Program-made: the position numbers and the translations under genes
Source: Escherichia coli
GTDB lineage: Bacteria > Pseudomonadota > Gammaproteobacteria > Enterobacterales > Enterobacteriaceae
DNA: 62,264 bases
Assembly (NCBI RefSeq): GCF_003334305.1
Contig: NZ_QOWS01000027.1
Direction: 5' to 3' (one strand)
Part shown: in pieces, positions 4,221-7,463 of the stretch
Position numbering within the stretch: position 1 is the stretch's first letter
Layout: every line of letters begins with the position of its first letter
The notes under the pieces: generated by a model
Databases searched by the model: none
What the model saw: only the letters and a program-made list of their open reading frames with translations
Told to the model about the DNA's origin: nothing

Positions 4221-6226
4221 AAAACATAACGCTGTGGCAGCGTTTAAGACAGGTCAGTATCAGTACCAGCTTACGTTGCGCATTTCTGATGGGGGCACTA
4301 CTGACCCTGATTGTCAGTAGTGTCAGTCTGTATTCATGGCACGAACAAAGCTCACAAATTCGTTACTCGCTGGATGAGTATTTTCCCCGTATTCACTCTG
4401 CTTTCCTTATTGAAGGGAACCTGAATCTGGTGGTAGACCAGCTAAATGAATTTTTGCAGGCTCCCAACACCACGGTGCGATTGCAACTTCGTACCCAGAT
4501 TATTCAGCATCTCGACACCATAGAACGGCTTAGTCGGGGACTGTCATCCCGGGAACGCCAACAACTGACGGTCATTTTGCGGGACAGTCGATCACTGTTA
4601 TCCGAGTTGGATCGTGCGCTTTACAACATGTTTTTACTACGGGAAAAGGTGAGTGAGCTATCAGCGCGGATTGACTGGTTACACGATGACTTTACTACCG
4701 AGCTTAATTCTTTAGTGCAGGATTTCACCTGGCAGCAGGGAACGCTGCTGGATCAAATCGCCTCCCGACAGGGCGATACGGCGCAATATCTGAAGCGATC
4801 TCGTGAAGTGCAAAATGAACAGCAGCAGGTTTATACCCTGGCACGCATTGAAAATCAGATTGTTGACGATCTGCGTGACAGACTCAATGAGCTCAAATCA
4901 GGACGTGATGACGACACACAGGTGGAAACTCATCTCCGTTATTTTGAAAATCTGAAAAAAACGGCAGATGAAAATATACGTATGCTGGATGACTGGCCTG
5001 GCACCATTACCCTGAGGCAGACTATCGATGAATTGCTGGATATGGGAATCGTAAAAAATAAAATGCCGGATACGATGCGTGAATATGTCGCCGCCCAAAA
5101 AGCCTTAGAGGATGCCAGTCGCACCAGGGAAGCGACACTGGGTCGCTTCAGAACGTTACTGGAAGCGCAGCTTGGCAGTACTCATCAACAAATGCAGATG
5201 TTTAATCAACGAATGGAACAAATTGTTCGCGTTAGCGGTGGGCTGATCCTAGTGGCGACAGCACTGGCGTTACTGCTGGCATGGGTATTCAACCATTATT
5301 TTATCCGCTCACGGTTGGTGAAACGCTTTACCCTACTGAATCAGGCCGTTGTGCAAATTGGTCTGGGAGGCACGGAAACGACTATTCCTGTTTATGGGAA
5401 TGATGAACTGGGGAGAATTGCAGGATTATTACGCCATACTCTCGGGCAGCTCAATGTGCAAAAACAGCAACTTGAACAAGAAATTACCGATCGAAAGGTG
5501 ATAGAAGCCGATCTGCGTGCCACCCAGGATGAACTGATTCAGACAGCAAAGTTGGCGGTAGTCGGGCAAACGATGACCACGCTGGCCCACGAGATCAATC
5601 AGCCGCTAAATGCACTGTCAATGTATCTGTTTACAGCCCGCAGGGCCATTGAACAGACCCAGAAAGAACAGGCCAGCATGATGCTTGGTAAAGCCGAAGG
5701 GGTGATTAGTCGTATTGACGCCATTATCCGTTCACTACGGCAGTTTACCCGGCGCGCCGAACTGGAAACATCACTCCATGCCGTTGATTTAGCACAGATG
5801 TTCAGTGCGGCCTGGGAACTTCTAGCCATGCGTCATCGCTCTCTGCAAGCTACGCTTGTTCTGCCGCAAGGTACAGCCACAGTTTCAGGCGATGAGGTCA
5901 GAACCCAGCAGGTACTGGTTAACGTACTGGCGAATGCGCTTGATGTTTGTGGGCAAGGCGCTGTCATTACCGTTAACTGGCAAATGCAGGGTAAAACGCT
6001 GAACGTATTCATTGGCGATAATGGCCCGGGCTGGCCTGAGGCATTGTTGCCTTCGTTATTGAAGCCGTTTACCACCAGTAAAGAAGTAGGACTGGGTATT
6101 GGTCTTTCAATTTGTGTGTCGTTGATGGAGCAAATGAAAGGGGAATTGCGGCTGGCATCAACGATGACCAGGAATGCCTGTGTGGTACTGCAATTCAGAC
6201 TAACGGATGTGGAAGATGCTAAGTAG
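4217..6226 (+). CDS. pgtB: Sensor histidine kinase, PgtB-like
   Basis: 669 aa; internal TM segment and a HisKA-like block (LAHEINQPLNAL) followed by an ATPase-like C-terminus; overlaps both neighbouring genes. Confidence 0.7.
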   Translation: MKNITLWQRLRQVSISTSLRCAFLMGALLTLIVSSVSLYSWHEQSSQIRYSLDEYFPRIHSAFLIEGNLNLVVDQLNEFLQAPNTTVRLQLRTQIIQHLDTIERLSRGLSSRERQQLTVILRDSRSLLSELDRALYNMFLLREKVSELSARIDWLHDDFTTELNSLVQDFTWQQGTLLDQIASRQGDTAQYLKRSREVQNEQQQVYTLARIENQIVDDLRDRLNELKSGRDDDTQVETHLRYFENLKKTADENIRMLDDWPGTITLRQTIDELLDMGIVKNKMPDTMREYVAAQKALEDASRTREATLGRFRTLLEAQLGSTHQQMQMFNQRMEQIVRVSGGLILVATALALLLAWVFNHYFIRSRLVKRFTLLNQAVVQIGLGGTETTIPVYGNDELGRIAGLLRHTLGQLNVQKQQLEQEITDRKVIEADLRATQDELIQTAKLAVVGQTMTTLAHEINQPLNALSMYLFTARRAIEQTQKEQASMMLGKAEGVISRIDAIIRSLRQFTRRAELETSLHAVDLAQMFSAAWELLAMRHRSLQATLVLPQGTATVSGDEVRTQQVLVNVLANALDVCGQGAVITVNWQMQGKTLNVFIGDNGPGWPEALLPSLLKPFTTSKEVGLGIGLSICVSLMEQMKGELRLASTMTRNACVVLQFRLTDVEDAK

Positions 6227-7463
6227 TGAATATTCGATTCTGCTGATTGATGATGATGCTGACGTGCTGGACGCCTACACACAGTTACTTGAACAGTCGG
6301 GCTATCGTGTTTTTGCCTGTAACAATCCTTTTGAGGCACAGGCGTGGATACAACCAGACTGGCCAGGCATTGTGCTAAGTGATGTGTGTATGCCTGGCTG
6401 CTCTGGTATCGATTTGATGATGTTATTCCACCAGGATGATCAACAGCTCCCCATTCTGCTTATCACCGGGCACGGCGATGTGCCAATGGCAGTTGATGCG
6501 GTGAAAAAAGGCGCGTGGGATTTTTTGCAAAAACCGGTCGATCCCGGCAAATTGCTTTCTCTGGTTGAAGAGGCACTACGCCAGCGTCAATCAATCATTG
6601 CGCGTCGTCAGTATTGCCAACAGACATTGCAGGTGGAGTTGATAGGGAGAAGTGAATGGATAAATCAGTATCGGCGACGTTTACAGCAGTTGTCTGAGAC
6701 AGATATTGCCGTCTGGCTCTACGGTGCCCCTGGCACAGGACGGATGACCGGTGCACGTTATCTGCACCAATTTGGACGTAATGCACAAGGCGAATTTGTC
6801 TACCGCGAGCTGACACCAGACAATGCACCACAGCTTAATGATTTCATTGCGCTGGCTCAGGGGGGAACATTAGTGCTCAGCCATCCTGAACACCTGACGC
6901 GTGAACAGCAGTACCATCTGGTTCAGTTACAAAGCCAGGAACACAGACCTTTTCGCCTGATTGGTATTGGAGACACCTCGCTGGTCGAGCTGGCCGCCAG
7001 CAACCATATCATCGCGGAGCTCTATTACTGCTTTGCAATGACACAAATCGCTTGCCTGCCATTAACTCAACGCCCCGACGATATTGAACCACTGTTTCGC
7101 CACTACCTTTGTAAGGCATGTCAACGGCTTAACCATCCTGTTCCGGAAGTGGGAAAAGAGATGCTCAAAGAGATGATGCGCCGCATGTGGCCAAATAATG
7201 TGCGAGAGCTGGCCAATGCAGCAGAACTGTTTACTGTAGGAATATTACCGCTGGCAGAAACAGCAAACCCGTTGATGCACGTCGGAACCCCGGCACCGCT
7301 TGACAGGCGAGTGGAGGACGCTGAGCGACAGATAATCACAGAGGCGCTTAATATCCATCAGGGGCGTATCAATGAGGTTGCTGAATATTTACAAATCCCG
7401 CGGAAAAAACTCTATCTCAGAATGAAAAAATACGGTCTTAGCAAGGAGCATTATAAAAATTAA
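6207..7463 (+). CDS. pgtA: NtrC-family response regulator, PgtA-like, with a degenerate AAA+ domain
   Basis: N-terminal receiver (LLIDDD...D), central AAA+-like region with divergent Walker A (GAPGTGRMTGA) and no GAFTGA, C-terminal HTH. Confidence 0.65.
   Translation: MWKMLSSEYSILLIDDDADVLDAYTQLLEQSGYRVFACNNPFEAQAWIQPDWPGIVLSDVCMPGCSGIDLMMLFHQDDQQLPILLITGHGDVPMAVDAVKKGAWDFLQKPVDPGKLLSLVEEALRQRQSIIARRQYCQQTLQVELIGRSEWINQYRRRLQQLSETDIAVWLYGAPGTGRMTGARYLHQFGRNAQGEFVYRELTPDNAPQLNDFIALAQGGTLVLSHPEHLTREQQYHLVQLQSQEHRPFRLIGIGDTSLVELAASNHIIAELYYCFAMTQIACLPLTQRPDDIEPLFRHYLCKACQRLNHPVPEVGKEMLKEMMRRMWPNNVRELANAAELFTVGILPLAETANPLMHVGTPAPLDRRVEDAERQIITEALNIHQGRINEVAEYLQIPRKKLYLRMKKYGLSKEHYKN

Follow-up and report, generated by a model that had tools for sequence, protein, structure and literature searches.

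The pgt locus and its regulator gene

The DNA examined here, hereafter called the window, is a stretch of 62,264 nucleotides from Escherichia coli (NCBI RefSeq assembly GCF_003334305.1, contig NZ_QOWS01000027.1). The open reading frame (ORF) at 6207..7463 of this window is pgtA, the response regulator gene that switches on phosphoglycerate uptake. An earlier note had described its product as an NtrC-family regulator with a degenerate central AAA+ domain and had suggested that it acts independently of sigma-54. The protein is recognized by the NCBIfam model NF047793 (ResRegPgtA, two-component system response regulator PgtA) with 728 bits against a cut-off of 650, covering profile positions 1-414 of 414, and the gene is 100% identical at the DNA level to ECP_RS15200 (WP_001298249.1) of the uropathogenic E. 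coli strain 536 and to copies in many other strains. The ORF is intact and, read on the plus strand from an upstream in-frame ATG at 6207, encodes 418 amino acids (aa). Since RefSeq and all orthologues begin at the ATG at 6216, the latter is probably the true start, and residues are numbered throughout according to the resulting 415-aa form unless the 418-aa ORF is stated.

Upstream of pgtA lie pgtC and pgtB, the 3' end of the latter overlapping the start of pgtA by 11 nt, and pgtP is transcribed divergently from them (Table 1). The same order, pgtP / pgtC-pgtB-pgtA, was seen in a further 12 species. PgtC and PgtB sense external 3-phosphoglycerate (3-PG), PgtB phosphorylates PgtA, and PgtA activates the pgtP promoter, PpgtP (PMC11077982; PMC9306846). 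Activation of PpgtP in vivo was reported for PgtA of S. Typhimurium (PMC11077982), and induction of pgtP by external 2-phosphoglycerate (2-PG), 3-PG or phosphoenolpyruvate (PEP) has been shown for Salmonella only (PMC11077982; PMC9306846). The Salmonella enterica protein is an orthologue that belongs to the same NCBIfam equivalog and is encoded in the same divergent arrangement; the E. coli island copy and the partial Salmonella sequences that were retrieved share ~77-84% identity. In E. coli, pgtA is an accessory gene present in 459 of 5426 complete genomes, and strain 536 has intact copies of all four pgt genes. The locus lies on a uropathogenic E. coli (536-type) island, between transposase and insertion sequence (IS) remnants and a fimbrial operon.

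Table 1. Positions in the window of the pgt genes, the domains and motif sites of PgtA and the proposed pgtP promoter elements
Feature	Position	Strand	Basis or remark
pgtP, phosphoglycerate transporter, regulated target	1240..2604	-	NCBIfam NF047787, 886 bits (cut-off 750)
Predicted pgtP -10 element, AACTCT	2657-2662	-	A2 and T6 invariant; CATTAT in several other genera
Predicted pgtP -35 element, TTGATG	2680-2685	-	TTG invariant in 13 species
Proposed PgtA box 1, TGTGTCA-CAAT-TGACACA	2696-2713		perfect palindrome; centre ~-54.5 from predicted pgtP start
Proposed PgtA box 2	2728-2745		centre 32 bp (~three helical turns) farther upstream, near -86.5
pgtC, periplasmic-binding-protein-like modulator of PgtB	3003..4220	+	RefSeq annotation; synteny in 12 other species
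pgtB, cognate sensor histidine kinase	4217..6226	+	NCBIfam NF047794, 1074 bits (cut-off 1000)
pgtA	6216..7463	+	415 aa; orthologue and RefSeq start; NCBIfam NF047793
Receiver (REC) domain	6237..6566	+	Pfam Response_reg, E=1.9e-28
Degenerate AAA+ alpha/beta subdomain	6642..7049	+	Pfam PF14532; PDB 3N70
P-loop remnant GAPGTGRM	6723-6746	+	aligned with PspF GERGTGKE; K42 -> R176
22-residue connector in place of the ESELFGH/GAFTGA L1 segment	6795..6860	+	19-residue deletion relative to PspF
Walker B remnant GGTLVLSHPEHL	6861..6896	+	PspF D107-E108 -> S222-H223 (6879-6884)
L2 / pre-sensor-I deletion site and sensor I	6930..6974	+	11 residues missing; N149 -> D253
Arginine-finger region NHIIAELYYCFAM	7002..7040	+	PspF R162 -> I266, R168 -> C272
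AAA+ lid subdomain including WPNNVRELANAAE	7068..7232	+	Pfam AAA_lid_14, 6.2e-11
Fis-type helix-turn-helix (HTH) DNA-binding domain	7311..7433	+	Pfam HTH_8, E=2.3e-10

The central AAA+ domain of PgtA and its relatives

According to Pfam, the domains of PgtA follow the order REC-AAA+-HTH_8, which is that of NtrC. To sample homologues, 1.84 billion cluster representatives were searched exhaustively, and a motif table and alignments of the PgtA clade (ten representatives at 33-56% identity) were prepared from the matches; a word-indexed search with the central domain returned mainly fragments of close orthologues, and the distant relatives were taken from the exhaustive search. The receiver and the C-terminal HTH domain are intact, as stated in the earlier note: both gave clean Pfam matches, the phospho-acceptor pocket (D12, D13, D56, T84 and K106) is invariant throughout the clade, and so is the stretch IPRKKLYL in the HTH domain.

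The motifs of the central domain were assigned by alignment with E. coli PspF, the sequence used being confirmed as 100% identical to PDB 2VII. The variant model Sigma54_activ_2 (PF14532) matched over its full length (E=1.9e-14), and the canonical Sigma54_activat (PF00158) matched at model positions 1-55 of 168 only (E=2e-4). The replacement of the canonical Walker A motif by GAPGTGRMTGA was confirmed both in the ORF, where it lies at 6723-6755 (residues 170-180), and in the PspF-anchored alignment, which places Arg176 where PspF has the Walker A Lys. The switch Asn64 of PspF corresponds to E198 in PgtA. No GAFTGA-like string was found in the PgtA ORF, and a 19-residue gap in the alignment spans ESELFGH through GAFTGA; this deletion and the 11-residue one fall exactly where L1 and L2 would be expected. 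The earlier note had reported both motifs as missing, and the result it named as speaking against its reading, an alignment revealing GAFTGA or Walker motifs at shifted positions, did not appear in the comparison with PspF. The sensor II Arg (PspF R227) is kept as R330, at a position that varies between R, K, I, N, Q and L across the clade. Because the L1, L2, Walker, sensor I and arginine-finger features are lost, PgtA cannot work as an ATP-driven sigma-54 remodeller. From the same motifs we infer a loss of ATPase function; nucleotide binding would be compatible with the P-loop glycines and the basic residue that follows them, which are invariant in the clade.

The AAA+ fold itself is retained, in agreement with the earlier note. 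All 145 residues of PDB 3N70, a structural-genomics deposit from 2010 with eight chains, entitled 'P-loop NTPase domain of the Sigma-54 transport activator from E. coli', are 100% identical to residues 143-287 of the 418-aa ORF; a literature search on the PDB code gave methods papers only, and no paper describing the structure was found. An AlphaFold2 model of PgtA built from the clade alignment had a mean predicted local distance difference test (pLDDT) score of 87.7 and matched the 3N70 chains in Foldseek with template modelling (TM) scores of 0.92-0.95, and the target-normalised TM scores against the AAA+ domains of PspF, NtrC1, FleQ and FlrC were about 0.65-0.74. The top full-length matches were NtrX and VpsR (TMq 0.57 for VpsR), both of which lack GAFTGA and are sigma-54-independent.

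The same losses run through the whole clade. A short connector of about 20 aa, compared with 39 aa in canonical neighbours, was present in 10/10 clade representatives, and GAFTGA was seen in none of the ten in the motif table. The Walker B Asp position was acidic in 0/10 (S, R, K, C, N, H or I instead), both arginine fingers were kept in 0/10, and the Walker A Lys was replaced by Arg in eight of the ten. Since the motif changes are present in every PgtA-clade member, they are not due to sequencing noise or chance. The nearest canonical neighbours, which are DctD-like (P0079, P0081, P0117 and P0122), carry GETGTGKE, ESELFGH-x-GAFTGA, GGTLFLDE and FREDLYYRL. Among the 120 nearest full-length representatives, 48 had a shortened L1 without GAFTGA, and 30 of these 48 also lacked both Walker B acids. 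Stripped-down AAA+ modules are therefore common among NtrC-like response regulators.

Could the odd motifs merely reflect pseudogene damage in a decaying, non-functional island remnant? The remnants of IS21 and other transposases that adjoin the locus would fit such a history, as would the truncated pgtA or frameshifted pgtC of some E. coli strains. However, the same residues are found in PgtA of Salmonella, which is functional, and recur across Enterobacterales, Pasteurellaceae and Vibrionaceae, the pgtA reading frame is intact in 435 of the 459 E. coli genomes that carry it, and strain 536 retains the complete gene set. Because synonymous sites were saturated between genera, the proportions of non-synonymous (pN) and synonymous (pS) differences and a within-species comparison were used instead of between-genus dN/dS. 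For the central domain, pN was 0.135-0.19 and pS 0.74-0.86 in comparisons with the Citrobacter, Pseudocitrobacter and Enterobacter orthologues. Between two E. coli alleles, 25 differences were synonymous (4 of them in the central domain) and 6 were non-synonymous (1 in the central domain). The rate at which this domain evolves is ~1.5-2 times that of the receiver and 2-3 times that of the HTH domain. These comparisons show that it is under purifying selection. We consider decay very unlikely, and the degeneracy is, as judged from the alignments, an ancient family trait shared with the functional Salmonella protein.

PgtA thus joins a known class. Atypical enhancer-binding proteins (EBPs) are defined by an absent or altered GAFTGA motif, often together with non-consensus Walker motifs, and a compilation from 2018 lists TyrR, HupR, HsfA, PhhR, NtrX and VpsR as lacking GAFTGA and acting with sigma-70 (PMC6158489). 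PgtA, which is not in that list, shows the EBP architecture with an AAA+ fold along with the loss of GAFTGA and non-consensus Walker motifs, and is best regarded as a hitherto unlisted member of the class; the gene, its regulon and the domain structure were already known. Our full-text literature search found no paper on the degenerate AAA+ domain or the sigma-factor dependence of PgtA, although older reviews or papers may contain one. With the Walker A Lys, the Walker B Asp-Glu pair, the arginine fingers, L1 and L2 all gone, PgtA stands at the degenerate extreme of the atypical EBPs.

Canonical bacterial EBPs (PspF, NtrC1 and the DctD-like neighbours) share with PgtA the alpha/beta and lid fold (TM ~0.7), GxxGxG, the 'GGTL' strand, the 'ELYY' helix, 'R..DI' and 'WPGNVREL', whereas GETGTGKE, ESELFGH-x-GAFTGA, the Walker B DE, the L2 insertion and FREDLYYRL are all absent in PgtA. 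VpsR of Vibrio cholerae, which gave the best global superposition, resembles PgtA in its REC-AAA+-HTH order, the lack of GAFTGA and a non-consensus Walker B, and its site lies directly upstream of a sigma-70 -35 element (PMC6158489). Unlike PgtA, with its partner kinase PgtB and intact phospho-acceptor site, VpsR needs cyclic di-GMP (c-di-GMP) and not phosphorylation (PMC6158489; PMC10274813), and the two proteins are only ~19-20% identical. Brucella abortus NtrX (PDB 5M7N/O/P) is the best match among solved full-length structures by both sequence and Foldseek. It shares the absence of GAFTGA and the independence of sigma-54 reported for NtrX, which represses its own promoter (PMC6158489), but it keeps the Walker A Lys (GPSGAGKE) and was crystallised with ATP and ADP; PgtA, devoid of Walker B acids and arginine fingers, is far more degenerate. 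The NtrC proteins of Rhodobacter capsulatus and Caulobacter are, like PgtA, response regulators with an L1 deletion that removes GAFTGA; they depend on phosphorylation and act at sigma-70 promoters (PMC10274813). Both bind ATP, and the Caulobacter protein also needs its hydrolysis (PMC10274813), whereas PgtA is without hydrolytic residues.

The pgtP promoter and the proposed mode of action of PgtA

The pgtP-pgtC intergenic region (2605-2912) was scanned for a -24/-12 element with the consensus TGGCAC-N5-TTGCW, and no match was present at up to 3 mismatches. For comparison, one genome per species was scanned, and 12 loci with complete pgtP and pgtCBA were retained, which together with the window gave 13 orthologous regions. 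The 12 loci came from Citrobacter (two), Pseudocitrobacter (two), Enterobacter, Edwardsiella, Budvicia, Serratia, Yersinia, Morganella, an Orbaceae bacterium and a second, divergent E. coli locus. These 13 regions contained one weak sigma-54-like match, compared with 2.0 expected by shuffling, and GG-N10-GC was absent on the pgtP strand downstream of the box described below in 12 of 13 species. The check for a sigma-54 promoter upstream of pgtP proposed in the earlier note thus yielded none in the window and none that is convincing in the orthologous regions. Within pgtA, the P-loop codons cctggcacagga (6731-6736) contain TGGCAC, the -24 half of the consensus; this was dismissed as coincidental because there is no -12 partner downstream.

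Alignment of the intergenic regions revealed a palindrome, TGnGTCA-N4-TGACnCA, in 13/13 of them. Box 1 is its only perfect match in the whole 62-kb window, and it lies 10-11 nt from the -35 TTG in all 13 species. Box 2 retains only a good distal half-site in E. coli (TGACCCA, 2739-2745), and the full palindrome is found in Yersinia and Budvicia. A TTG, a spacer of exactly 17 nt and nAnnnT follow the box in 13/13 species; in 2000 shuffles the combination occurred in 0.14 species on average and in no more than 2. The distances of the box centres given in Table 1 assume that pgtP transcription starts 7 nt past the predicted -10 element, which would be at about 2650 on the minus strand. At its threshold, a generic sigma-70 scan gave no promoter on the minus strand between 2500 and 3100, which fits a weak, activator-dependent promoter whose elements were found by comparative alignment only. 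As judged from this alignment, the pgtP promoter looks like a weak, activator-dependent sigma-70 promoter with phased, adjacent activator sites. Such a layout would be unlike a sigma-54 promoter with a remote enhancer and would resemble that of VpsR at PvpsL (PMC6158489).

Other assignments of the palindrome were considered. CRP recognizes the consensus TGTGA-N6-TCACA. The half-sites and spacing of TGnGTCA-N4-TGACnCA do not match it, and the palindrome was rejected as a CRP site. A terminator-like call at 2713-2696 is the same palindrome, located upstream of pgtP and conserved as a paired box, and was likewise discarded. A further element, CGGGTAAnTTTTGyCnCAA, lies just upstream of pgtC at 2903-2923 in most of the 13 species, and its core TTTTGTCTCAA is one base off the PgtA half-site TTTTGACTCAA. 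This element could belong to the pgtCBA promoter or serve PgtA as a site for autoregulation. The mechanical pgtC ORF begins at a TTG at 2913 (435 aa), whereas RefSeq places the start of a 405-aa product at 3003. Translation of the 30 additional codons (2913-3002), which overlap the conserved element upstream of pgtC, is improbable.

Taken as a whole, we consider it quite likely that PgtA is an atypical, sigma-54-independent EBP of the NtrC type that induces the divergent pgtP gene together with sigma-70 RNA polymerase. Upon phosphorylation of D56 by PgtB, PgtA would occupy the two helically phased boxes in dimeric form or as a dimer of dimers and would recruit or stabilise sigma-70 RNA polymerase at the weak pgtP promoter through a contact of the class I/II type. 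The vestigial AAA+ module may serve as a scaffold for oligomerisation that couples phosphorylation to DNA binding or polymerase contact. PgtA would not hydrolyse ATP, and its conserved P-loop would be required structurally and might bind a ligand.

Several observations weigh against this explanation. A number of database names read 'sigma-54-dependent', for example 'sigma-54-dependent Fis family transcriptional regulator', and a paper from 2024 places G173 in a domain 'predicted to interact with sigma54' (PMC11077982). In E. coli the -10 element, AACTCT, is a very weak one, and the position of the pgtP start is predicted. The label 'derepressor', found in PMC9306846, could mean anti-silencing and not polymerase recruitment. 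Finally, the invariant GxxGxG[RK] loop shows that the nucleotide site is not simply vestigial.

The database names and the 2024 statement, together with the title of 3N70 and the NtrC-like domain order, would favour a conventional sigma-54-dependent EBP; the current NCBI family name for PgtA is neutral on sigma-54. Every defining feature that was tested fails, however: GAFTGA and L1, L2, the Walker A Lys, the Walker B Asp-Glu pair, the arginine fingers, a full match to PF00158 and a -24/-12 promoter, the last in all 13 species. A genome-wide study of the sigma-54 regulon in S. Typhimurium LT2 employed a promiscuous constitutive activator so that silent promoters would not be missed, and its text mentions no pgt gene (PMC3844500). 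We therefore regard sigma-54 dependence as extremely improbable, and the suggestion of the earlier note that PgtA is sigma-54-independent is supported by the motif losses relative to PspF and by the promoter searches.

The 'derepressor' label leads to another explanation, in which PgtA is mainly an anti-silencer and its phosphorylated form displaces a repressor or a nucleoid protein such as H-NS from the pgtP-pgtC region. This horizontally acquired intergenic DNA is very AT-rich, the island is flanked by IS remnants, and VrpA also binds the pgtP promoter region in Salmonella (PMC7873081); the label itself comes from early genetics (Jiang et al. 1988, as cited in PMC9306846). On the other hand, the fixed distance between box and -35 TTG in all 13 species is typical of direct contact between activator and polymerase, and such exact spacing is rarely needed for pure anti-silencing, which makes derepression as the main activity rather unlikely.

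The role of the P-loop is illuminated by natural alleles of Salmonella. In S. Typhi, the substitution G173D inactivates PgtA, and reverting D173 alone restores function; H223Y, at the position of the catalytic Walker B Glu, is thus tolerated (PMC11077982). Comparison of the S. Typhi sequence P0040, the non-typhoidal sequence P0055 and the window sequence showed that residues 141, 173 and 223 share their numbering in Salmonella and E. coli PgtA. P0055 carries GEHGTGRMTGA with E141 and G173, and P0040 carries GEHDTGRMTGA and all three S. Typhi substitutions (D141, D173 and Y223). The E. coli loop has AP in place of EH, and E141, G173 and H223 occupy identical positions in the E. coli and Salmonella proteins. 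Gly173 is the middle glycine of the P-loop, and G170, G173 and G175 are invariant clade-wide down to 33% identity, with position 176 always Arg or Lys. These alignments suggest that G173D is a P-loop or fold defect rather than a defect in sigma-54 contact. Because G173D kills PgtA, the P-loop still matters and may bind a ligand.

It is therefore possible, although on present evidence doubtful, that PgtA is sigma-54-independent and that its P-loop binds ATP or a phosphorylated ligand without hydrolysis, as a requirement for oligomerisation or activation. Besides the invariant loop and the contrast between G173D and H223Y, this would agree with the R. capsulatus NtrC, which reportedly needs the binding of ATP but not its hydrolysis (PMC10274813), and with the NtrX crystals containing ATP and ADP. 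Against it, the sensor II arginine varies within the clade, the Mg-coordinating Walker B position is often taken by Lys or Arg, whose side chains could fill or obstruct the nucleotide site, a Gly to Asp change in a tight loop could wreck folding regardless of any ligand, and VpsR requires no ATP (PMC10274813). Such ligand binding refines the explanation of PgtA as an atypical EBP and contradicts only the view of a functionless nucleotide site. A full conversion of the AAA+ module into a ligand sensor, for a nucleotide such as ATP/ADP, a cyclic dinucleotide (cf. FleQ and VpsR), or intracellular phosphoglycerate or PEP, seems improbable to us. If it were true, PgtA would combine an internal metabolic signal with the external one from PgtC/PgtB, and ~30 related clusters at 50% identity with a stripped site would represent a large class, so far unrecognised, of response regulators that are ligand-gated pseudo-ATPases.

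Uptake of host 3-PG under PgtA control matters as a carbon source for intracellular Salmonella (PMC7873081), and a single P-loop substitution in PgtA explains the failure of S. Typhi to use 3-PG (PMC11077982). If PgtA is indeed ATPase-dead and directed to sigma-70 promoters, the G173D lesion would have to be reinterpreted and the annotation corrected. The boxes and promoter elements of Table 1 would then provide a concrete promoter/operator model, and PgtA would become a tractable enteric pseudo-ATPase response regulator with a solved domain structure. No new principle would follow, as atypical EBPs have been known since TyrR and the R. capsulatus NtrC, and the result would not surprise specialists on bacterial EBPs.

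Neighbouring genes and related loci

An IS21-family istA pseudogene remnant follows directly after pgtA (7808-8600), and from 9106-13236 onward a small PapB/SfaB-like regulator gene is followed by a chaperone-usher fimbrial operon. With these neighbours, the pgt locus forms part of a mosaic pathogenicity-island segment. On the other side of the locus, directly downstream of pgtP, an ORF of 125 aa (832-1209, minus strand) encodes the hypothetical protein WP_000639471.1, whose gene adjoins pgtP in E. coli A33 as well.

Of 484 matches, 11 were located on plasmids. In some strains pgtC is frameshifted (E. coli A33, locus L082, 2808-4005) or pgtA is 5'-truncated and annotated as 'helix-turn-helix domain-containing protein'; the pgt system is being lost in part of the E. 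coli population. The second, divergent pgtP/pgtCBA locus of the species is that of strain SCPM-O-B-8794 (NZ_JAATUR010000039.1, 830-7110). Its identity to the window is ~50% for PgtA, 76% for PgtP and 46% for PgtB, and a PgtA box and a -10 element reading CATTAT are present there as well. This suggests that two pgt lineages were acquired independently by E. coli.

More distant loci show other gene contents. Vibrio spp. (loci L014 and L017-L021) carry PgtC-, PgtB- and PgtA-like genes beside a transporter gene whose product is only ~26% identical to PgtP, and in Aggregatibacter (L011) such genes occur without any PgtP; the degenerate regulator module has probably been reused there for other organophosphates or unidentified substrates. 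A PgtC/PgtB/PgtA-like trio was also found on a 9.6-kb contig labelled 'MAG: Euryarchaeota archaeon' (NZLM01000051.1, L025), which is most likely a mis-binned bacterial contig.

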